Positions 38,601 through 64,000 of a stretch of 64,000 nucleotides of DNA are shown here, in pieces. This DNA comes from Tubulanus polymorphus. Its lineage: Eukaryota > Animalia > Nemertea. Location of the stretch: the NCBI RefSeq assembly GCF_964204645.1, contig NC_134025.1:26206299-26270298 (forward strand), written 5' to 3'. The notes below the pieces were generated by a model. The model had not been told where the DNA came from. It was given only the letters and a program-made list of their open reading frames with translations, and did not search any database. Position 1 is the first letter of the stretch. Every line of letters starts with the position of its first letter. Both the position numbers and the translations under genes were made by a program.

Positions 38601-41600
38601 AAAAAAGCCTTTGTTTTTGTTTTCTTTTAGGCTGACTTGAAAGAGATGACTATGACCAAACCGTTTATGGGAAGTATCAGACGTACATTCCACCCGGCTG
38701 TATTCTTCAGTTATCGAAAATCTGAACACAATACTGCTGTACATGTGAAGCTGCATAGATTACAGGTACTTGAACTCCGTCTGAATTCTCCATATACCAT
38801 CACGTACAATTGTCTTAATATAATCACGTTTTGATGATGTTTTTATTTCTTAGATCGATAATCAACTTCCCGATGCATATTTTACAACCGTGTTATATCC
38901 AACACCCATCCCACATTACATACTGAGAAAGACCGGATCCAAGCCTTTTGTTGAACTCGCTTTTATGAGACGTCAAGTACCAGAAAACAGCATCGATGCA
39001 TTTAAGTGAGGAACTATTTCCATTTCATAATGCTCGGCTATAGTTACAGTACAGTATAACGATGCTCTCAAATTTATTTTAGGTATTTCCAGGTGCTCAT
39101 ACAGGAACTGAGCCTGAAAGTTGATAAAGGATTTCTCTTGTCAGTCTATGACATCTTTTCTGGTTTACAAGAACCGAAAAGTGAGGTAAGATACAGATTC
39201 ACCAATTCTTAAATGAAAAGATATGACATTTCTGATGAAATCTTATGATCTAATGTATCGTGATTTCAGAGCGTACAGTTGAGAGCGGATTTGACTATTG
39301 CTCGACGTAGTTTGAAGGAAGCGGCAAAAATCATGGTGAGAGCGGAAACAAATATAATATACACGCATGTAATAAAGTAGAAATGTACTTACTCCTTTGA
39401 TTTCTTCGATTTCTTTTCCATCAGGTTGCATCCCGACCTCAAAAGATACTTTATGAACATTTACACTTGTCTCCATTAAAACTGAATGTCAGTTTCTCAT
39501 TGAGCGGAAGAGTTCACGAAACTGATGAATCCAGTACATTCTCCGAGAACATCCTTGAGTTCTTCCTCAATTCTATAGGAGTCACATTCACAGAGGTCAA
39601 AGATGTTGAGTTGAGGTATGTAGCAATGTTGATAATAAACTGTGAAAATTCATTGCTGTCTCTTTTCATGGGGTAAAAGATTTTGATGATTATCATTTTT
39701 CAGGATGGCATATTTCGACCGTAAAGGAGCAGTTCTTTCTACATCGCAGCTGATATCTGAAGTGAAATCTCATTACATATCACAGACAATACAACAGTTA
39801 TATGTACTCATTCTTGGACTGGATGTGCTCGGTAACCCATATGGCCTTGTTAAGGACTTCACACAAGGATTGGGAGACTTCTTCTATGAACCCTTTATGG
39901 TATGTCTCAAGCACTTTCATTTTTCCTTCAATCAATAGAAGAAAGTCCAATCATTGTTTAGAAATTATTTATTTCAGGGATCCATCAAAGGTCCAGATGA
40001 ATTTGCTGATGGAATTACAAAAGGAGTTCTAAGCTTGCTTGGTCATACTGTTGGTGAGTTAATAGATATTTTAAATCTATTAATTAACTGAATGTAATGG
40101 GTACTAAATCATACCATAGGATTTTCAATTTCAATTTTGATGATGTTTTTTTAGGTGGAGCTGCTGGCTCAGTGTCTCTCATTTCTGGGTCTATCGGTCG
40201 AACATTGGCTGTTCTTACTTTTGATGATGATTACAAACGAGTATGTATCATTGTGATAAACTACCCCTAAGCATGTCTATTAACTAGTCAATTGATACTT
40301 TCTGTGGTGATTTTAGCGGCGTAGACGAGAAATGCAGCAGCAACCTAAGGATTTTCCGAGTGGATTGTTAAAAGGCGGAAAAGGTTTTGTGATGGGTGTA
40401 GCTCTTGGACTGTCAGGCGTTATCGTACAGCCAATTAAAGGTAAAATTCAATCACTTGTTTCAGCTTTGGCTCCAGAAAATACATGTAAATGTACAATAT
40501 TTATTGGCATAATTTACAGGAGTTCAAGAAGAAGGTGTGGAAGGATTTTTCAAGGGAATTGGCAAAGGTCTTCTCGGTCTGATCACTAAACCTGCTAGTG
40601 GATCATTTGATATGATTAGTATGGCATTTGATGGGCTCCGCAGGTAAAGATATCAATGTTGTATGTGTCCCTGTACATGTGCATGTGTGTATGTTTCATA
40701 GTTACGTGAAAAGATTATATAGTGTTACATAGATATTTTCTCACTCCATTTATTTCAGAACGTTTTACAAGTAAGATTTCAAATAATGAGACATTTTGAA
40801 TGTTTGTTGCTCGTCATGAATCTGAGATTCTATTATTAATACCACCCAGCTCTTACCAACATATGAAAGAACCTTGACCTATCTTCCTGACACTATAGGG
40901 CATGTTGTGACTTAATTTGTCATAAAACGTTTATTTTAAAACTACTGATAAGGCTGCAGCATTCTATTATCCACTTCATTTAACATCAGAAGCTGAACTT
41001 CACACAAGTTTTTCAGGATGTCTCTAAAAATTATCGAATACCGGCATATAGATGTAACAGTAACTTATAGCCCCCTCTGCTATATATGCTTGAGTATCTT
41101 ATTTAATGCATATACTTTTCACTAAATCATTAAATCAATCAATTCACTTGAACATTTAGAATGCAGTTACATATTAACAAATGAGGGATTAGGTATCATA
41201 TAGATAAAGGATCACATTATTTTCACATTGATTTATCAACCTGGAAATATGATTTCAGTCTTTTTTTGGGTGTGCTTTATTGAAAGATATCAGCTGTTTT
41301 GACCAAGCGAATTTTCGATTGTAGGGCTGCAGAGATGGGAGACCATGTAGTTGTACGCATGAGGTTGCCGAGATACATTCACCCCCAACTGGTAGGTGAA
41401 CTGGATGATAACAAATAACAAATGATTTGTCAAGGTCTAGAATCTCTTGAATCTTACCTTATTTCCCTTTCTTTAATCGTAGGGATTGAGACCGTATTCA
41501 ATGTATCAGGCAACTGGCAGAAGATTACTGATGAACTTGAATAAAGGTGAATACACATTGTCTGATGACTATTGGGCACATGCTTCACTGACTAAAGAGG

Positions 41601-49420: not shown

Positions 49421-52400
49421 TCACTCAGTGTGCACTGTCACTATCTGATCTTCTGAGTCAGTTACGGTACCCTAAAGCTTGAAAGTAAAGTAACTTAGAC
49501 TAAACTCGATATCAGTTTCAATTCGAAAATTGGAAACTCTGCTACAATGTAAAATACGTGATAAATTGACTCTTTCAAAAGTTTAATACAATAACAGAAA
49601 CTGGTCAGAATCAACAAAATTATACTCGATATATTATGAATATAGCCAATGAGATTAGATAAATATATATAACCTTTTACATCTTTAAAATACATTGGAT
49701 ATTGTTACTTTGTTTAGATAATAGTGGCAACAATGAAATCATTATATAAGGATAGGCATAGAATATCTAACTCGCTACTGACAAATAGCAATACAATATC
49801 AACTGAGATTCTAAATATCTATGAAAGCCTAAAATATAAAATGGCCTCCTACAAATGAGCACTTCGCACTTTCCGGCTTTCAATTTCGTATATTGCTTCC
49901 TTCGCGATGTAATTCTCACGCAGCATTTGGTCCTTGACGGAGCGCGGAACGTCGGGGATGAGTACGTTCAATAACCACGTCAACAGGATAACCACGTGCT
50001 GCAAGTGATGAAAAAACCGTTGCAAAAAACTAATTCCTGTCATGAAAACGAGGTACTACGGTGTTATTTATCTATCTTACCTCGAAAACAATGACAAAGC
50101 TGATGCGTGCTGCAAATATGTGCCAATACGTCAGTGTGAACTCGTATTCATTAGGGGTGTCAGGTGCTGATCTATAATCCCGATACCTGAAACAAATATT
50201 ACATCATCAGTACTTTAATTCGCTAGTGATCCGATTCAATTAAGCATCATATAGATAACTGAGAACTTACCTGCAGTAGGTAATGTTAGCATAATCACCA
50301 ATAATAGATGGTTCGGGATTGCTTGAACTCTGAAAATCTGCCACTTTAAATGTAGATAGAGAGCTGTTTATGTAACCAGTGAGGGTATCTTCGTTAGTCA
50401 TCTTGTAAACCATTTTCGGTATGAAGTCAGATGTGAAAGCGATGATAAATGCCTGCAAAGTTTAGGAATCATTTTTAGAAAGTATGCATTCCAAAAAAAA
50501 AAGAAAAGAACAGAGAATTGGTTCACGATCAACTTACATTACTGATAACCGCAATTCTTGAGACAGCCAACAGTATGCTGTACCATATTCCGATATCTTG
50601 ACCTCTTTGCGCCATTGGTCGACGCCATTGAGTAGTGAATTTGTACGCGTCCACTCTGATCTCGATTACGTTATTGATCAATGCGAATAGAGGTGCCAGC
50701 GGGAAAGCAGCCACAAAGATCGTCACAAAGCCATACTGGATTACTGAAATATGAGATACAATTTCAAAATAGCCATTGGGCTGGGAAATCATTTGATGCT
50801 GGTCTCATCAATCCAGGTTTTGAATATAATGTTCACACATTCTATAGGACATTCTAAATTTAGTCCGTTCCAAGCATTCACACTAGCCCATTCTAAATTG
50901 GTCCATTCCACTTAAGAACAAACCGATTTAGACTGTCCAAAAGTCTGATCCAGGGCATACTAAATTCTAGTCAGTTCTAATTTATTCCGTTTGAGGTAAG
51001 AACCAAATGAGAATAACTAGAACTAACTAGCAATAGTGTGAATCCGGCCTTGTTGCGCAAACGAACTAAACATAAAAAATTTTACCCATTTCTAGATATT
51101 CCTCAAATAAGCCTGTATTTGCCATTGTGTCCAGATCATAATCCTGTTCCCAACGTGTATAAACACTCATTTCATGTTTTTCTTGTTTTCTAGCTGCCCT
51201 AGACAGCCACCAATTCTTGATTTTCCTGAGAAAATAATGTTGTCGATATGATAATTTTTCCAGATGATAGAATAAACATCAAATGTATATTCAGTAAGTT
51301 TGGTTTGTTCTCAGTTGTTTTTACTGATTGACAATTCAAAAGTCCCCAGAAAACTGAAACTTCTGTAATCACTTCATAATGAAGGACAAACTTACGGCAG
51401 CATGATTTCTTTGAAGTTATTAATGCCCTGTTTGCCAACCATGGTAACTCCAAGTTGAATACACAGTTCAATCAGACAACCAGCTGGATCACACTGTAAT
51501 AAAAGTCAAATCATGCTGTAACTATTACATACATGCTTCTTCAAATCATTTATCACCAAGATCATTACCAATCAACAGTTCATTATGAAATTCGCAGAGA
51601 AAAGCATTCATATTAGTAAATTTTTATACAGAAATTGAACAATTACAACATGCATTGAGATTGACTAGCAATGGAATGACGTGGTAAATATACAAGTAAT
51701 ATTCACCTCTTCTTGTCGATAGACAAATGAGTAATCATAATTCCCAGGTCTACCAATTAATCTGTTAAAAACACAAAGTTACTAATGTGCACAACACGGA
51801 TTCTGTTATAACAAACACTAAGTGCAAACATGTATAAGTCTACGATAATTTCTCAAAGTTGCGCAAATAGTTAAAGTAATGTAATGAAAGCTTTTGAGAA
51901 AATATGTGTAGGTTCCTGAACTAGGTAGAAAATACAATCTGAGGACAATGCTGAAATTAATACCGGTGTGAAAATGAACCATTATCATTAAAGGACAAGA
52001 GCAGTTCTTCACTCCATGAGTACTATCAAAACCGCATTACATGGTCTCAATCGGATGCCGAATGGAGAAAATCATGCATCAGAAAATTGACAGAAATGAA
52101 AATTAGGGGCAAGAAAATCACTGCACTCATGCATTGACGTAAAGGATTCACAGAGAGATATTAATTGAAAATCTAAAAATATTGGTTAAATTCAAAGTCA
52201 AAATAGATTTGTCTTCAAAGCGTAGGAAAGTCTGTACGTTGGTAAAATTTCTGACAAACATTCACCGCTAAAACCCAATATTTCTATGAACCATGAACAA
52301 ACCATGTCTAGCCATGCTTCGTGTGAAATATAGCTCAAATGCAATAGACTCAGCAAGAATAGAGCTGATAGCGATAAATTTCTTTCAATCAATTCTTCGT

Positions 52401-55400
52401 ACAAATCATAAGATAGTTATGGTTATGGTTTGTCCATAAATGTTACAACTAATGATGAAAGTATTCTGATTTTCACATCGTGCAGTCATCGGATACCTCT
52501 TCTTGTCTCCACTGCCCAAACAATTTCCTAGTGCCAGGTTGACCGGATAATCTGTGTAAAATTTGCGTAAAGAGAAGCTTTATACCACGGAAGAAAGACG
52601 GAAAACATGTATTCATCATATCAGTAAGAGTAACTGTATGATTCAAAGTACGTATTATGGAAACCAGCATTGAATAATACAAGAGGAAAACCTCAAAGAA
52701 TAGAATGAAAAACATGCATTCTCAATATGAAATAATAAGTTCGAAGAAAAAGCTGCAACCTACGCGTATGGGTTTAAATGTGTTGCAATTCAACAAATGT
52801 GTGGACAAAATGTGAAATGAGGTGTAACTGAATAATATTCTTTTTCTTAATTCTGTGTAACAATTTTACATGGCACGACATGTGTATGTATTATTAGTGC
52901 CTTTCTGTGATGTGTTTTGAACATTGTTTTTGCTGACATCAGTTGGGTTGGATATAAATTCAAGATGGTATCAACGGTTAAAGCATACACGAATAAGGAT
53001 TTATTTCGAGAAATTTTTTTTAATGCATCAGCAAAGAATGTATTTTCTATCGCATAAGCTATTGGATAAACTAGGATATCAGCAAAACTGAAAATCGATG
53101 GCTTAGTACGACATCATCACATAAATTTTACACCTAAATCATCTACCTCTTCTTGGCGGTAACCAAAGAAAGTCTTTTCCCCTGGGGCTCCTGTAAGTCT
53201 GCAGGGTTTTAGAATAATTAATGTTACACCTAATGATTATACAATCGAAAAAGGCAGTGTCACAACCACTAGAGATTCCCTCTCTGCTGCATAAACAGCT
53301 GAAAAAACTAACCTTCCTTTGAAAAACGCAATGTAGAAAATCGTGGAGTAGTAGTTGACAAATTGGAAACAGAACATCTTAAACGTCAACCTATCGTCAT
53401 ATTCAGTTTCAGTTCGTGGATTTTCTAAAATGCAGATTAAATTGGTGAAGATAGTTGTAATTTATATCATAGTATTCGTCGATTTTCAATTCGAACTTTG
53501 ACATAATCTCACCCCAATTGGTCAGAAACAGAGCAATTCTCTCATACAACTGTAAATACATGAACAAACAATTAGCACCCATGAAAGGTTAACCAAGCGG
53601 CGGGAAGGGGCGGAAATCGTATTCATACCTTGTTTAGAATCATGATGATGATAAGAGAGATAAGAGCAGCCGTGGCAGTCGTTAGAATCTTAGCGTATTC
53701 TCGTATGATACCGTCCGACGAAGCCGACATCAGAGTTACAATAATAATACGATAAACAATGATCGCGAATACTGCACAAAGACACAGGCAAACCTAGCAA
53801 TAGGAGAATCATACGTAATGAATAGTCAAAAATCTTTCAAATCAGATTCGTATATTTGCGTGTATGTGTTTGTGCTTGGCTGCCATACTAACCATGAAGA
53901 TGCAAACAACAAATGAACTGCAATCAATCGGGGCTCGTTTATAAAATGGTACGTAAGGCTCCTCTTCCTAATCAAATACATAAAATCATTACGATCTGGC
54001 TGAAATATTCACAATGAAATCATAATACAACAAGAACCCAATTTTCGAACCTGCGTGACCGGATTTCTTCTCTTGTCATTGACAGCAATTTCAAACTCTG
54101 GTCGAATTACTTCCTGAAAAGGGGAGTTACCGTAAGTTAATTGAATTCAGCCCCTTAAAACACCGAAAGAGTTACTCAATTTTCACTGCACTATTTTCCA
54201 GTACCTCCTCTTCCTCAAACCCGGCCACATCCCAGTCATAACCAATTTCAGCTTCTTTTCTTTTCCACATTTCCAGGAACATCGTGGCTGAAGAAAGAAT
54301 TACATGTACGATGATAATAGAATAATAATCGTTTCATGTGAGATGTTTACGACTTGAAAACTTACCCCAGAGACACATAAATCCAGCAAAGAATACAGTA
54401 GCCGGATTATCAAATATGTAAGTTAACCGTGAAAACAGACAACTCTTTTTAAGTTTCCAGTACGCGCAGTACTTGTCACAGAGAGGACACATTATCAAAC
54501 CACCAGCTTTTGTTACGTTGCATATATCCTCACTGCAAATGATCAAAATCAATCGATCATTAACAGTAGAAATGTCTTTAACAACTAAATCCAAGACATC
54601 AGTTTATACCTGGGGATATTATCAAATATAGTAGCACATCCATAGATGAATACGGCCAAACCGATTATAGACGCGGGTATCAGCATGCTCGTGTAGAAAC
54701 CTAACCAACAAAAGTATATACCAATCTTCTCTCCGAAATATTTCCTGCAATACGAGAAAATATACTCACAAGCTTATATCGTGTCTGCATGCATCGAGAC
54801 CAATGAATGATGCACTAAATGTAAACTTACCGGATAAGATCTAATGGCTGATACTTGTACCACATCCGCGGACGAGCCCAAGCTTCATACAAAAGCTACA
54901 AAATCAAATAAATGGTGACAGTGAAAAATGCGGACCCAGTGCAGCTCTGTAAATCACGACTCAATTTAATAAAAGATAAGTCAAAATCAATTAGTTTGTT
55001 ATTGTTTAACTATTGAAATGCACTATTTGAGAATTGCTGACCAAAGATTTTCTAGTCAACTTACATGTCTCTCATTCATAGCGCCCTCGGTTAGAAGAGA
55101 ATGTTCACTTGTGTAGCTTCCCTGAAAGAACAAAATTGAATAATTATATTACGCAGCAGAAATCCAATAAATTTAGTTGATATCAGTTATATTTACCTCG
55201 TGCAGTGGATAACACGCTGAAAATGCTTCAATATTCAACAATCGCCTTATACCTATTATCAGAAATGAATATATTCCAATTAATACATACACAATTTATA
55301 CCTCATTTAGGTTCTATAACTGAAGTAAAACTTCTCAACTCATTTCCGTAGACAATGCCAGCCGTTTATGAATAATACCTATTTTCTTTTTCGGTTCAGA

Positions 55401-58400
55401 CATGTCTTCTTCATCGGATGTTGCTGAAAATCCATAAGGACATCTGCACAGGATATTCCAAACGATACGACTTCTCTGGGCATTAGTGAAAAACGTGCTC
55501 TTGTCTTCGATATGGAACCTTTTAAAATAATGATACTCAGTTGAGAGTGAGTTAAATTCTAAATAATTCAATTGTGACTGTTAATCCCTAGTTAGAATTC
55601 AGCAATGGAACTGGGTCCAGATACGTTAAAATGACACTTACAGTTCTTGATTATTCCTGTTGAATGCCATAGTGAAGTAATCTGGGTCATCATGTAAGAA
55701 TCTGTCGCCCAATTCAAATGGGTTCGGGATCTTTTCAAAACAGCTTTTCTGTTGCTGTGCATCTTTCTACAACAGAATACAATTCCGATCGTTAAGCTAC
55801 AAGAATATAGCCTAGTAAGTTAGTCATATAGTTCTTTCCAGTGATGAATAAAAATACATCAGATATTAACAACTAAATGATTAAACATGAATAGCTCGAA
55901 GATTCTACCACTATATGATAGCAAAACGTGTGTTGCGATGATTAGAAAATTTCCTCTATTCTCTCAAACAATTTCCAATCCATTTTACCATGCAACGCAG
56001 TGCAATTTCAATGATGTAGAATAGAAAAAAAAGATAAACAATTGACCGACTACAATTGTGAATAACCTTTCAATCAATCAATAGCCTTGTGAACAATGGA
56101 TAAAATGAGCTAAGCACATTTGAATACATCTGAAAACACTGAAAATTAATAGGCGGAATATATGAATACGGTTCTGTGTATGAACAATATATGACACTTT
56201 TTTAAAAAGATCATTAAGTGAAGCAAGGTGTAAAACTACATGTATATATGGGTTATTTAGTGCCCGTCTCAATATCACCTACCTCTACCCACGACTGAAA
56301 CAGTGCATTAAACTGTGGAACCAAATCTGATGTAATATCCTGAAATGTAATGCCCAGCGTGCTCACGTAATGAAAATAAATCTCCGAAAAAGAAATATAA
56401 TTTCTCGTTAAATGTGCGCGCAGAAAGGAAAATAGAACCTCCAAATATTTTGGCGACAGAATCGTAAAAAATTGATTAATTGTTGTGAAATGAATCCGTA
56501 ACCTTGTGAAGAAACAAGAATTGTTAGTAAATGCTCATGAAAAGAATCTGAATAACTGTACCATAACTTTTTCGAGTTTGACTCTAATATGAGTAAGAAA
56601 GCTAAAGAACTTCGTTTTTTTAGATGGTTCATTTGGAGAAAGTTCCTGTAAAATCCAAGCATGGACGTTTGATGGCATAAGAAGTTTCAAATAAGCTGCA
56701 AAGGCTTGATATATTTAAAGCATTAAACTTGCCTCATAATGCAACAGTGAATCCTGTAATTGAAGGAAATTTGCTTTGCCAATCCGAGGAAAAGTAAAAA
56801 TTCCATGATACAAGGAAATTTCATGAATAAATAAATGTTTCCATCAACGAAAAGAAATTGTTCACTAGGAAAGTTCTCATGATCTAAGAAGCAATAAATA
56901 TTATGAAGCGCACCTCTCTAAACTACTTAAAGCCAGGTGCTTATGAACCAATTAGGAAAAGAAAACTATGGTTCATGAGTGAGTGTGGGTATTCTAGTGG
57001 TACAGATGGAAAAACCTTTCTTCCTTTTGATTAAGTTTCGTACCATGATGCGTAACATAATCAACCTGGCTTTATATTCACAACACCGAAATATTTCCAA
57101 AAGAAACACACATCATTGAAATTAAGAACACAGTGCCCATCCTTTGTGTTTTGTTAAAAAGAATCTTAAAACCAGCACTTCAAGAAATAAGGAATGATGT
57201 CAATGAATTACCTCATTGCTTCCGTGGCCCTGTCAAAAAACATGTCATCAAATACTATGATGTATACTAGTGATATGTAATAATATGAAGCTTCTATTAG
57301 GGGCATAAGTGCAAAGTGCTGTAGGAGGTTGGGGTGACTATCCTATCATCAATATCTGCTGCTACACCCTGATAATATTGACTACCTCAATGGCACCGTA
57401 TTGAGTAGTAGGTTTACTTATTTGACTGCAGGTTTTTGTGGCAGCACACTGAAAATTTGATACAAAATTTCCAAGCATCACAAAAGCAGTTTCGTTATCT
57501 AGTTAGTATCATTCTAAGCTTGCATGTTCATAATTTCATAGCTGAAATGATTTTTTTCTCTTATTCATCTAATGAGAATGTTCTATTTTGCCAGTTTGCA
57601 CAACACAGATACTGGTAATGCTTTTTCGGCATTAAACAACAAAGGGATTGTTTATCAACGGTAAATTAATATGCAGCAGAAATGATTTCTTTTTCCAATC
57701 CAACTCTTTTGTTGAGTATTACAAAACAATACATGTACTACAATCAAGATATATTTTCAAACAACGATTCACAAATATTTTCAGGAGCTTCGTAAATCGA
57801 TCTTAAGACATACCTCAGCCAATGGCATTTTCATTTTCATCAGTTCTGCATGTCTGGTCAATACTTCCCATGTCGCATGCAATTTGACGTAGCATATTTT
57901 ACCATTTTGCGATTTCTGAAAGATGAAGAGCCGGGAAAGTTTGTTAGTTTGTATTTTCGAGAGGCAAACAAATCTTATTGAAAAGAAGAAGTATTAATGA
58001 GCAGCGTTACTAGCACGTTCACAACTAAGATTTTTTTCAGTGAATTTTATGAGCATAGTGTTGCTATATTTACAAGTGATTCATCTAAATAGCTATTTCT
58101 GTGTGAGGATCATCCAGTATTTCAGTAAATCAAGGTTAAACATAAAATCTGAACACTGGTATGTTAGCGGATCCAAAACAGCCGAAATCAAGATTTATAA
58201 ATAGGTACAATCGAATCTCAAACAAATTAAAACTGAATAATTAAACTGGCAACTGATGATAATAATTGCCATTATTACTTGTACATCACCATGGTAACGA
58301 AAAGAAGAGATATGGGAACCACCCTCGCCGACAATGAACAGGTCGATTTTGTCAACATGTTTCCTGGTCTCATATGAAAAGTAATGTTATATGAATGTAA

Positions 58401-61400
58401 TAAAACTATTATCAATAAGATTGGGTGTCACCGATCTGAGCTCCTCGAGTGTGCGTTAAATAGAGAAATATTCAAGTTTCGAGGAAACTGTTATACCTGA
58501 TCCAAGTATTATGAAAGGTACATTGTACTGTTAATAGATTAAACCATGAAAATTGATTAGCTACTTTATTAAAACGATGTCGAATAGTGAATGTTAGTTA
58601 CTACACACAAATTAATCAGACGTGGCAGAGATAATTCATTAATCTATTTACCGTCCACGAACTGATGATAATCTGCTCAAGGAAGAACAAAAAACGTCAT
58701 GCATTTTTTAAATACTTTTATAGGAAAATTAGTAAGGCAATTTTGGCCACACTATAACGAGGCTTATCAGCTTAGAAACACATCTATTTCATTCTGCCAT
58801 GCTGAAATGACTTCATTCATTTATTATGGATAGATGCAAAAATACATTAAGAGGATGTATTTTTGATAGAAGCTAATTCAACTGATGACACATATTTGCT
58901 GCTATAGGCAAACATTTCGAAAACTATTCAGGGTTTGGCAGTATGCCTTCCTGTGTAACGAGGGAGTGAGGGAGTGTTTAGAATCGACGTATACTCATCA
59001 AAGCACTTCTAAACCTAAAGCACAGTCGTTGAGATTTTTCATTTCGCTGATGCTGATAGGAACCTAGTCTGGTGGATATATTTTAGAAAGTGTTTATATC
59101 TGCAGGAATGAAGAGAACTGTAGCTATAGTAGTAGTAATTACATGCTTCTTCCGTTTATTTTCTTTCTGAAAATTGCATAAGAGAAATATACCGGTGGAA
59201 CCCTAGCGAGGTCACTCCTTGTTTCTTTAAAGTTAACATTTTATTGTATATACTCAATTTTGAATAAGATTATGAGATATTCATTTGATTTATGGTTTTT
59301 GTTACGTTTTTTTTTACAAAGAAAGCGATTTTAGTTTAAATTTAACATTCTAAGCTATGGACTGGTTTTCATCAGCGTGTTAGAATCCAGTCGTATTGAT
59401 CCCAATAGACTGTTTCGAATAGAATCCTGTGGTCTAAAACCAGTCCAAATTATACCAGAGCTTTGATGCCATGCACTGAGCTCGGCGATGATAGACGTAG
59501 GCCTACATACCTTTTTCTGGTGCCATTTAAAAAAATCAAATTCATTCAATGTTACATTCGAACAAATTGACGAATAAAAAGAAAAGGAAAAAAGATCAAC
59601 ACAAAATTCAGATCAAATTATGCACCCACTTTTCAAAGAAATGCTATTCTATAAAACGATACATTTAGGTTAAATAAAATGTAAATTTTTTCATGGAACA
59701 CACAAGGAAGACATCAAGTCTACATGAAATCAGTTTTGTCCCTTATCATTTAGAGAATTCAATGGTAACTAAAAATCTAGCACTTTTACCTCCTTTTCTT
59801 CTATTTCCAACTGCAGGCCTTCCTCTTCTAGATTTTTCATGAATATATCTCTTTTGTCCTTCTTCTTGGCATCTTTATCTTTAGTTCCATCGTCGATAAA
59901 CGCCAAGATGTAATCGATCTTTCGAACTCCATCATCGAAGAAACACGTTTCCTTTTTGGAAATTTCCTTCTGCAATTGAATATGAATTTTATGAGCGATA
60001 GAGATAAAAATGAAATAGCTGCCACCACGAAGTAGGGTCAGAAATGAAAGATTCAGTATTTACAGCGATATCTTTGATTGTACATCGCATATGATAAAGC
60101 GAATGCTTTTTTGGAGACAGTACAGGACAGGAGACATAGCCCTATAACAATATAAAGTATGTATGGTGTAGACACATGGAAACAAGTGCACAAGTATATC
60201 AACTATAACACCAGCACAGAAACTGGACTAATTCATGCAAACAATAACCTATTACAGAAAGAATTTCATCATCGATCTACTAACAACTGGTGGAAGTTCA
60301 ATGTTGATTATTCTAAAAGCAATGTGTATATATTCTATCTATTTGAGAGATTCGACAACATGAAAGTGCTTCACCGAGGTGCGGAAAGAACGTGGTGTTA
60401 CCTTAGGTGAATGTCCAGGTGACAGTGGACTCTTCTCATCAGCATGCTACGTATAGAGAGCGGTTTAAAGAAAGTGTCAGTAGCCAAAAGACATGATTTA
60501 CTTCACAGCACGGGACCCAATAGTGATACGTTGTTGCTGTTGTAAATTGTAAAACCTCACAACTTTACACAAAATACTACCACATTTAAATGAAGACATT
60601 TAGTGGAAACATAAAAGTATCATCGCAGCAAAATTTAGCGGTACAAGTGATGTAACAGCGACATCATGTACGGCGAATATACATCATTCTTTTGTATACC
60701 GGTACCTCAGACCAGACATCATATCCAATACGACTCCCTAGAAATGTTTCTTTTTATCAATATGATCAAATCAATCTCCGATGGAGAATGAAAAAAATTA
60801 CCTCAATCAATCTCTTATAGATATTCATTTCAAACATTTCCGGCCACATAGATCCACATCACAGGACAAGGGCCTCATATAACTGAACCACCTGATTGAA
60901 ATGCCGACCTGACCAGAAAATGCTTCAGGAATTTATCATATCATGGGGGCTACTGTCCACAAATAGCGCTAAATGTACATTATACCTAGTATTAATAAGT
61001 GAATAACCATTGACTAAAAATACTGCATGTTCACGCGATTTGTAAGAGGGATGGAAGGTCTTTGACAAATTGAAGCGCAGCTAATGATCGATTCAGATGA
61101 CTAAAGTAGTAGAGATTTATTACACAAGAATCCCTCGACATTCTTTTAGAGACATATACCAAACCATAAAGCATCTTCTACATACAGCAAAGATTTGCAG
61201 CAATCTACTACGCGTTCAAGTATCATATAAGGCATGAAGCGAATAGCTCTGAACGCAATACAAATATTTTTGATTGATGTAGAACAAACCAAGGAATCGC
61301 TTCCCTGGAAAAACCTACCAGCAATGCATCATCACTTTTCAAAGGTTCTGATTCTGAGATTTCGGTCATAATTTTGGTTTGAACGAAGCAAATTATCACC

Positions 61401-63728
61401 GTTGAAATACCGTTACATGTTACAACAGTACGGGTGAATATATGATTGAAAATATACATACTAATAAAATATGAAACAATAAATGAATGTGTGATATCGA
61501 TCTATGGGGAACATCTGTTGATGATTGTACTTCTGGTTTATTTGATGATTAGATCAGCCAAAGTAATGCAACAAGCTAATAACTATCATTAGTCGTGGCT
61601 TTCCTCCAGTTTAATATTACATATTACTGTCGGGTGATATTTTTGTGATGTTAATTTAGCTATTCATCTCAGTAAGTAATTACATATACTACATTAGTAG
61701 GATGTGGACCTTTCGTTAAAATCTATAACGTACGTAAATGTTAGATATTAAGCAGATTGCGGCGTGGTTTTGTATTCACTTACTCGCTTGAGTTCAATTT
61801 CAAATGTATAAACTAACTGAAACATAAAACGTAGCAAGTTCTGAAAACTGCGCAGTCTGAACGCGATCGACCGAGGTATCGAATACTCAAACAAAAAAAG
61901 AACTGAGGAACCAACACCATTAATCAAAAAAGTAAATGAAACACCTTCCCAAAAACCAGCCGAGGCATTCTGAGGAACAATAAGGTTTTACATACTATAA
62001 CACTTATGCAAGCAAGGGGTATTCTCTAAGGTTCCATGCCTTAAAAATCAAATAAATATTTTAGACACTTATTGTATAGAAGGATCACCCTAGAGTAATG
62101 ATTCATCATGTATACTGATTATTATTTGTCAATGAATAATACAACAGGTCTTATTCAAATGCATGCCATGTTAGGAACATTGACTACTACATAATTTCAT
62201 GTAGTAATTAAATGTACTACCAGTACACTAATACTGTAGTATGTTAGAACTCAACTTAGCAGGACTCTCCAAGCGATTCTTAATGCTTAGTCACTCTTCT
62301 CATAAACAACAAAGCCCTGGATTCCTATCTTTGTTTTGCTCAGAATAATATTAGAAAGATATTTGGTCTTATACAAATGTTACACCAGGGGCTAGTTACA
62401 CGAAAACTAGCTATCCTTCATTGAACTAAAAAATGTTTAACTAGGGCCTAACTGAAAATTATCCCGAGTTTCATTGTTTATATAGGCCTACATGATGGGC
62501 CGAATCTTTTAATCAACGTAATTTTTTTTCAAAATACTCAAATTATCATTCATAATTATTTCCAAAGATAAATACATGCGAAGTACACGGCTAATACAAG
62601 ATACAAATATCATATGTATGAATAATTGTAATTCCAAAAATGCGAAAATTCTAAAAAATTCTATAAAAAATACAAAGAAAGGGCAACAGACTTATATTGC
62701 TGACTTGCAAAAGTATCTAACAAGCTTAAATAGGCTGGTTACCTTTTTTGTACCATTGACAGGAGACTGAAAAAGAGTATTGCTATGTTAATTGCCAAAG
62801 GGCAGGTCAACATTTATATTTTGTCCGTATTTGTTAAGAGCTACCTAGTTCATACCACTATAACAGCTTGTAAACATTTTCTGGATAATCCAAAGTGCAT
62901 ACATATCAAGCTGCACAAACACTAATAAATGAACAATTTTCATTTTCATTACCTGATTATCATCACCATCTTCAGCTTGCATATCCCCAGCATTATCTTC
63001 TTGATCGCCACCTGAATGGAATGTTTTATAACCCTTCAATTTGTTTCGATTCATTTTCGCATATATATTCTCTGACGGTGTAGAAAAATATGTTATCCGA
63101 ATTGTTCTTCAATCTATGTTAATACTGTTACGACTGATATTCATCTTAACCCAGTTTACTCTTCTGTACAATATTTGTTCAACTGTTTGTCGCAAGACGA
63201 TTTTTCATAGCTGTTAAGTATGGCAATATATATATATACACTTCACGGCAGATTAGTTCAGGGCTTATAGGGCAAGCACTCAGCCATAATGAACTAAACA
63301 GGGCAAGTAGTGGTCAAAAATAACTATTTTATGAAATCCATACAATAATCATGAATTACTCAGCCATGAGACTGAACACTTGGGTGCATATGTACTAAGT
63401 TTTATATCTGATATTGTAAACATTTCAGACTAAATACAATATAAAAACTTAACCATATTTTTCTTTTATTGATCAATTCATTTTAATCTAAAATGAATGT
63501 ACTTGAATGGATCATTACCTGCAGCAGGGGTGTGAGCCTCCAATCCAATGGGGGCAGCACCATCATTGCCCAGGGGCTCAGGTTCGGTTTGACCCTCTAA
63601 ACCAATAGGTGCGGCTCCATTGCTAGGGGGCTCTGGCTGAGATTGACCTTCGAATCCGATAGGTGCGGTTCCACCGGGCTGCTGATTCTCCAAATTTGGA
63701 TAAAGTGGATTAGCTAATCGTTCAAATC
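49421..63728 (-). CDS. Anoctamin (TMEM16) Ca2+-activated channel/scramblase, ANO1-7-type; 5' end extends beyond the window
   Basis: Exons encode [14 protein letters not shown] (59969-59790), [72 protein letters not shown] (53424-53313), [14 protein letters not shown] (51493-51397), [19 protein letters not shown] and IPDVP. Final exon 49471-49421 ([16 protein letters not shown]). Confidence 0.95.
50830..51050. repeat. TE-derived repeat in an anoctamin intron, related to 1331-1420
   Basis: Internal ttctaaatt/gtccgtt subrepeats and ttcacac ... gtgtgaa inverted ends. Confidence 0.55.
51707..51761 (-). CDS. Anoctamin mutually exclusive exon C (55 nt): (R)[18 protein letters not shown]
   Basis: ttttaacag|A...GAAGAG|gtgaat, phase 2 to 0; closest to the recalled vertebrate FVGRPGDY. 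Confidence 0.88.
52497..52551 (-). CDS. Anoctamin mutually exclusive exon B (55 nt): (R)[18 protein letters not shown]
   Basis: tttacacag|A...GAAGAG|gtatcc, phase 2 to 0. Confidence 0.85.
53147..53198 (-). CDS. Anoctamin mutually exclusive exon A (52 nt): (R)[17 protein letters not shown]
   Basis: ctgcag|A...GAAGAG|gtagat, phase 2 to 0. Confidence 0.85.
63519..63728 (-). repeat. Anoctamin N-terminal exon (210 nt, phase 1-1) with three APIG[F/L]E peptide repeats
   Basis: Translation [70 protein letters not shown]; ttctag acceptor and gtaatg donor. Confidence 0.75.
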
Positions 63729-64000
63729 CTAGAATTCACACAGAAATAAAAGGTCATCATTTCAATGTCACAGTCCAAAATCTGTTTATTGAATTATTAT
63801 AATTAGATCAATCGAGACAAATATATTCCAGGGGTCTGGGCAATGTTTGGGCCGAATACCGTTCTATACAACACAGTTAACAACAAAGTTCCGAGACCAA
63901 GGTTGCAGGGGCCTCACTTCACCAAGAATCTTAGTGTCTGATGTACCACAGACACTAAGATGCGAACAACATTTTCTCGATACTTTTAGATCACTGCAGC

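Follow-up and report, generated by a model that had tools for sequence, protein, structure and literature searches.

Substitution of tandemly duplicated exons is a well described form of alternative splicing, which is enriched in ion-transport genes and has often arisen convergently (PMC9741552). In the systems covered there, such as slo/KCNMA1, para/SCN, CACNA1C 8/8a and mrp/ABCC9, adjacent homologous internal exons are used one at a time and the key residues are kept. Trios of such exons are known from C. elegans lev-11 (5a/5c/5b) and gly-5 (9b/9c/9a), where three homologous exons of a length not divisible by three are separated by long introns (PMC4165533). Anoctamins (the TMEM16 family) are also spliced alternatively in vertebrates with functional consequences, but the variants listed in PMC8835819 (TMEM16A segments a-d and exon 0, TMEM16B exons 4 and 14, TMEM16F V1-V5) involve cassette or terminal exons that affect the N-terminus, the first intracellular loop or the C-terminus; a homologous swap is not among them, nor is any variant of the loop between transmembrane segments 5 and 6 (TM5-TM6). 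Here we describe a 64,000-nucleotide (nt) stretch of the genome of the palaeonemertean ribbon worm Tubulanus polymorphus (contig NC_134025.1; hereafter the window), in which an anoctamin gene carries three homologous exons for exactly this loop. We consider it likely that each transcript receives one of these tandem copies of a single exon, giving three versions of the anoctamin that differ only in an exposed TM5-TM6 hairpin, with exclusion backed by nonsense-mediated decay (NMD), a control of the Rbfox type, and a tuning of the outer mouth of the protein as the probable effect.

All coordinates are given in window numbering, and the exon trio and its host gene are located on the minus strand. 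The constant upstream exon (53313..53424) encodes TM5, including the equivalents of TMEM16F Q559 and Y563 and of TMEM16A K603, and ends in phase 2 with FFKG followed by the bases AG. The constant downstream exon (51396..51493) begins in phase 0 with CDPAGC, the start of TM6. Between them lie the alternative exons A (53198-53147; 52 nt, 17 residues), B (52551-52497; 55 nt, 18 residues) and C (51761-51707; 55 nt, 18 residues). Each of the three has an AG acceptor and a GT donor, and their last nine bases are identical; the 11 bases of common exon end and donor are found at three places on the minus strand of the window, all within this cluster. The lengths, splice sites and common end given in a preliminary description of the locus were confirmed at these positions. 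Exon C encodes a loop of probably ancestral type and alone is used in the NCBI model XP_074649330.1 (983 amino acids, aa), from which A and B are absent. Since this model is the sole member of its protein cluster, both exons are missing from the protein collection that was searched.

The frame rule asserted in the preliminary description, by which exactly one copy must be included, was borne out by a gene model built from the window, whose introns are mostly confirmed by RNA joints. Single inclusion of A, B or C leaves the frame open to the natural stop (737-738 aa), whereas the transcripts with no copy, with A and B, A and C, B and C, or all three stop at aa 433-451. The copies have eight residues in common (L, G, P, G, R, Q, E, E), and at five of these eight the copies use different synonymous codons, the last three codons being identical; the earlier claim of diverged DNA with retained residues holds in this form. 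In a search of 750 candidate segments bounded by AG and GT in the window with a profile of 75 loop sequences from other organisms, exon C ranks first (E 1e-8) and exon A next (E 0.02). Exon B scores weakly (rank 16, E 11); its homology is recognized by the eight residues that it has in common with A and C. Neither the 34 candidate segments within the cluster nor the 750 of the window contain a fourth or decayed copy, and an acceptor-like stretch at 52852, which resembles the acceptor of B, was rejected because unrelated sequence follows it. An N-glycosylation sequon is absent from all three copies. The exon trio is thus confirmed: the locus has adjacent homologous exons of the same phase with intact splice sites, and a full protein results from single inclusion alone, as expected for tandemly duplicated mutually exclusive exons. 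The three exons are probably used in this mutually exclusive manner and functional.

Compared with the known systems, the Tubulanus trio resembles those of PMC9741552 in its arrangement, in its location in an ion-transport gene and in its recurrence in orthologues from different phyla, and differs from the ones described in that source by the very small size of its exons (52-55 nt) and by their coding for a loop on the outside. The homologous mutually exclusive exons of C. elegans span 83-248 nt in the data of PMC4165533. The lev-11 and gly-5 trios share with it the number of exons, the length not divisible by three and the long intervening introns, features that point to exclusion backed by decay.

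The host gene, anoctamin-4-like, extends over 49849..63729 with its stop at 49849; the first ~27 codons of the 983-aa model were not placed in the window. Its assignment follows from a window exon that matches the NCBI anoctamin-4-like protein of T. polymorphus with 100% identity. The protein matches PF04547 and PF16178, aligns with mouse TMEM16A at E 1e-215, and its predicted fold matches those of TMEM16A and TMEM16F in Foldseek at E 1e-52; both the sequence and the ten-helix fold place it in the ANO1-7-like branch of the anoctamin/TMEM16 family. TM5 matches TMEM16F better than TMEM16A, with equivalents of Q559 and Y563 at positions where TMEM16A has K and S; the Tubulanus protein has glutamine in the place of the TMEM16A/B-type lysine. 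In TMEM16F, Q559 faces the permeation path, and lysine at this position reduces the permeability ratio of Na to Cl (PMC6690719). These sequence features lead us to predict that the host protein is a poorly selective channel or a lipid scramblase activated by calcium.

The swapped exon is the equivalent of R605-E624 of mouse TMEM16A(ac), and its product is a loop between TM5 and TM6 that contains short strands in the predicted model (residues 672-690; predicted local distance difference test, pLDDT, ~72-81). The preliminary description had correctly assigned it to the outer TM5-TM6 loop, but had set it between K603 and R621, while R621 lies inside the exon and is invariant. The equivalents of K603, R605, R621, E623 and E624 are identical across the A, B and C forms, and the middle of the loop, the hairpin, alone differs, including the positions of R609 and Y613; the same middle is a variable region of the family alignment. 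In TMEM16A, K603 and R621 affect anion selectivity together with R515 and R788 (PMC4751199), the latter two being outside the swapped exon, E623 is a sensor of outside pH (PMC8835819), and K603, E623 and E624 influence inhibitor potency (PMC10245117). The proposal that the exons alter the known charged selectivity residues is therefore not supported, although the net charges reported with it are correct (A -1, B +1, C -1) and stem from variable positions.

These observations bear on whether the exon swap could act as a switch of selectivity or function, that is, between different anion/cation preferences or between channel and scramblase. The swapped segment lines the outer vestibule, its net charge varies among the copies together with the R609 and Y613 equivalents, and in the orthologues described below the residue at the R605 position changes from R to S (Lineus) and the RxEE end of the loop is altered as well (alternative forms of Owenia and Priapulus). 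We nevertheless regard such a switch as unlikely, given that the five charged equivalents from K603 to E624 are fixed in Tubulanus, that the Q559 position, which shifts Na/Cl permeability in TMEM16F, belongs to the constant upstream exon, and that the middle of the loop varies across the family. A fine-tuning role is more likely: as none of the conserved charged residues of the vestibule differs between the forms, the swap would not convert an anion channel into a scramblase, but would tune properties of the outer mouth such as how readily ions, lipid head groups or blockers reach it, the sensitivity to outside pH, and surface contacts or trafficking.

Analysis of 20 clusters of related anoctamins, with up to 15 members listed for each (for example, 15 out of 22 in Lineus, 15 out of 62 in Mytilus and 15 out of 81 in the oyster cluster), allowed us to identify the same event in other species at the level of protein annotation. 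Among the members listed, isoforms of one species exchange exactly the segment between FFKG and CDPAGC in three of the 20 clusters, and in all three the 30-residue flanks of the swapped segments are identical. In Lineus longissimus, one of the 15 listed isoforms carries one form and 14 carry the other (XP_064628634.1 versus XP_064628633.1); residues 667-684 are the sole difference between isoforms X9 and X8, which rules out that the variants of this species come from different paralogous genes. The first swapped residue is R in one Lineus form and S in the other, as expected from a phase-2 junction after AG. The division is one versus three among four isoforms of Owenia fusiformis (CAH1799994.1 versus CAH1799995.1) and one versus five among six isoforms of Priapulus caudatus (XP_014662739.1 versus XP_014662740.1). 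Tandem exons may be presumed in these three genes as well. Each of them has two forms among the listed members, compared with three in Tubulanus. Among 150 best representatives, of which 148 were screened and 106 had a located loop, no protein model contains two loops in a row. Apparent swaps in the Mytilus, Haliotis, Branchiostoma and Acropora clusters were rejected, as they are differences of one or two residues and mostly between species.

With the swap in annotated isoforms of three orthologues, the Tubulanus trio becomes one instance of an event that is either recurrent or ancient. In a FastTree phylogeny of 50 proteins from which the loop had been removed, all four swap-bearing genes form one protostome clade with the mollusc and arthropod genes (support 80), the spiralian part of which has a support of 99. 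By pairwise scores, C groups with canonical loops of the GRPG-x-Y type (Capitella 75, amphioxus 73, one Owenia form 71), in accordance with the proposal that C would be the ancestral-type loop and A and B derived copies. The scores of A and B are 49 and 42 against the derived Lineus form and 39 and 24 against the Lineus X9 form, whereas C scores 33 and 48, respectively. As A and B are nearer to the derived Lineus loop and C to the X9 loop, a pair of canonical and derived exons suggests itself that predates the split of the two nemerteans, with A and B originating later. Neither A nor B resembles the derived loop of Owenia (scores -5 and -7), and derived loops of different phyla have no detectable likeness beyond a PG/PA core; over 18-24 residues, one ancient origin and repeated duplication give indistinguishable patterns.

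A broader and rather unlikely extension would be that a splice switch of the outer loop of protostome anoctamins predates the split of nemerteans, annelids and priapulids, that it involved one TMEM16A-like loop and at least one divergent loop, of which molluscs kept only the former type and arthropods only a divergent one, and that the switch alters the function of the pore mouth. Were it true, ion preference, lipid access, gating by outside pH or an outside partner would be altered, and these natural chimeras would probe the least understood part of the TMEM16 vestibule. Two side observations concern the same genes. Lineus has a second anoctamin gene, sister to the first in the tree, and its loop is similar to the less common of the two alternative forms of the first gene (score 77); the exon roles have possibly been split after gene duplication. 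In the arthropod orthologues, the single listed loop is longer (23 residues) and, like that of the alternative form of Owenia, lacks RxEE; a derived copy may be its origin, the scores being low.

The copies are separated by introns of 595 and 735 nt, a length that rules out steric exclusion, as the limit in C. elegans is reported at introns under 40 nt (PMC4165533). In the same survey, 14 of 19 exon clusters of a length not divisible by three rely at least partly on NMD. Exclusion by competing RNA pairings between a docker and selectors, in place of protein factors and decay, appears quite improbable for the Tubulanus cluster. Such pairings could use a 21-nt repeat that flanks exons A and B, with one copy just upstream of the acceptor of A (53217..53237) and another downstream of the donor of B (52436..52456). 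These two copies are identical at 19 of 21 positions, which none of 200 shuffles reached (control stretches reach 16-18 of 21, and the window size was chosen post hoc), and a partial third copy is located at 53120-53137. Two 20-nt arms that are 80% complementary (52554-52573 and 53114-53133) could in addition pair the start of the intron after A with the acceptor region of B. However, the strongest duplexes that the outer introns can form with other parts of the cluster in this one genome were matched by 2 to 11 of 20 shuffles, and the repeat copies have no pairing partner in common; the repeat may be a splicing element or a duplication remnant. Exclusion backed by NMD, which would remove the wrong combinations, is favored because the introns between the copies are long enough for splicing and no docker pairing stands out.

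For the choice of the exon, the introns of the cluster provide a candidate signal. They contain seven GCATG sites in the sense orientation (52717, 52317, 52132, 52077, 51653, 51536 and 51516; 51512..52717), four of which are TGCATG, and none in the antisense orientation, in a total of 1657 nt; the expected number is 1.4, none of 1000 shuffles reached seven, and the other tested introns of the host gene have six sites in 5858 nt. RBFOX proteins bind a GCAUG-type element (PMC11874969), and through a UGCAUG site RBFOX selects a mutually exclusive exon (7a/7b) of unc-32 in C. elegans neurons (PMC3585155). The seven sites are candidate binding sites of the Rbfox family, and by their number and position around B and C they would be consistent with tissue-regulated exon choice by an Rbfox-type factor. 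The similarity to unc-32 is in the nearby UGCAUG sites; the C. elegans clusters belong to different gene families, and their regulation was proven by genetics, compared with motif counts in Tubulanus.

Four sequencing runs contain the stretch, none of them recorded as RNA. RNA evidence is provided by spliced contigs in one of these runs, one sample of one study, which can show presence but not absence; two further runs gave short unspliced pieces only, and missing cover or joints were not counted as evidence. In one contig, whose mean depth is high, the shared AG and 15 bases of the upstream exon are joined to B, the B-C intron is retained, and the donor of C is spliced to 51493. The upstream-B joint and the joint between 51707 and 51493 show that the acceptor of B and the donor of C are used in RNA. 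A second contig starts exactly at 53200, at the AG that precedes A and is shared with the end of the upstream exon, a point where spliced and unspliced paths would merge; it is a weak hint that A is used. No joint between copies and no skip joint is listed among the contigs of this sample, from which absence does not follow.

Several observations weigh against the proposed use of three copies one at a time under Rbfox-type control. All RNA evidence comes from one sample, among whose contigs there is neither a complete single-exon transcript nor a junction of exon A, and NCBI models C only. The informative contig retains the B-C intron, and its frame would end seven codons downstream of B; the assembly may have passed through several forms here, or the contig may represent a real dead-end or partly spliced RNA. 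No swap was found among the listed members of 17 of the 20 clusters (six mollusc and five arthropod clusters, those of a bryozoan, hemichordate, amphioxus, coral and sponge, and the second Lineus gene), five short fragments among these members being without the loop region. As for the intronic sites, the GCATG motif was spotted by eye before it was tested statistically, and TGCATG with its four copies is only seventh among hexamers, a count reached by 12 of 1000 shuffles. The mutually exclusive use asserted in the preliminary description is supported by the frame arithmetic, by the acceptor of B and the donor of C in RNA, by the C-alone NCBI model and by the single-exon swaps of orthologues.

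Part of this evidence would also fit a model in which C, or C and B, alone make protein, and A and possibly B are rare or unproductive decoys, or belong to a regulated route of intron retention and decay that sets the level of the gene. The C-only NCBI model, the retained B-C intron in the sole RNA contig across the cluster and the lack of an A junction among contigs can be read in this way. We find this model improbable, since A and B keep an open frame, a length of 3n+1 and the eight shared residues despite synonymous change, none of which decoys would need. In addition, the contig in which the upstream exon continues into the acceptor of B has a high mean depth, and the derived-type loop is the commoner annotated form in Lineus (14 of 15 listed).

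The class of mechanism is a known one, tandem-duplicated exon substitution, which makes the surprise moderate; what makes the locus interesting is that the swap affects the outer vestibule and recurs in three phyla. Full-text literature searches found no mutually exclusive exon in TMEM16, their scope leaving aside most subscription papers, the Drosophila catalogue, and fly genes including subdued (PMC3814000). The mutually exclusive exons of PMC4555475 and PMC12592175 concern CaV1.2 and not TMEM16. No entry for ANO1-ANO10 or anoctamin is present in ten supplements of the human catalogue PMC5740500 or in the available supplements of PMC8373072, and the term anoh is absent from the text of the C. 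elegans survey PMC4165533. Anoctamins are not named in the main text or supplement of PMC9741552 or in the supplement of PMC7954323, as far as these small files, which may lack gene tables, extend. As to the novelty suggested in the preliminary description, these searches yielded no paper on such swaps, but two-way swaps at the same site already exist in automated annotations of three other species. What is new is that annotated orthologue isoforms of Lineus, Owenia and Priapulus swap exactly this segment, which adds anoctamins to the ion-transport families with recurrent exon duplication, and that two exons absent from the only NCBI model found were identified. In the trio, nature has exchanged the loop of the outer vestibule with the positions of TMEM16A R621, E623 and E624, involved in anion selectivity (PMC4751199), activation by outside pH (PMC8835819) and blocker potency (PMC10245117), and three isoforms about ten residues apart on one backbone offer a clean test of the role of this loop.

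Several minor features were observed elsewhere in the window. Two in-frame segments bounded by AG and GT on the minus strand (57229-57212, 18 nt, and 56645-56562, 84 nt), located between the host-gene exons at 57814 and 56339 and absent from the NCBI model, are candidate cassette exons of the host gene; the same N-terminal spot also varies among Lineus and Owenia isoforms. Short intronic elements at 58836-58868 and 50873-50910 match several other contigs of the DNA run and are dispersed repeats. On the plus strand, an exon at ~40470-40630 reads like the C-terminal part of a protein of the VPS13 family. A reading frame on the minus strand (~47070-45990), which directly follows the anoctamin gene on its downstream side and apparently has no introns, has codons that look ankyrin-repeat-like by eye.

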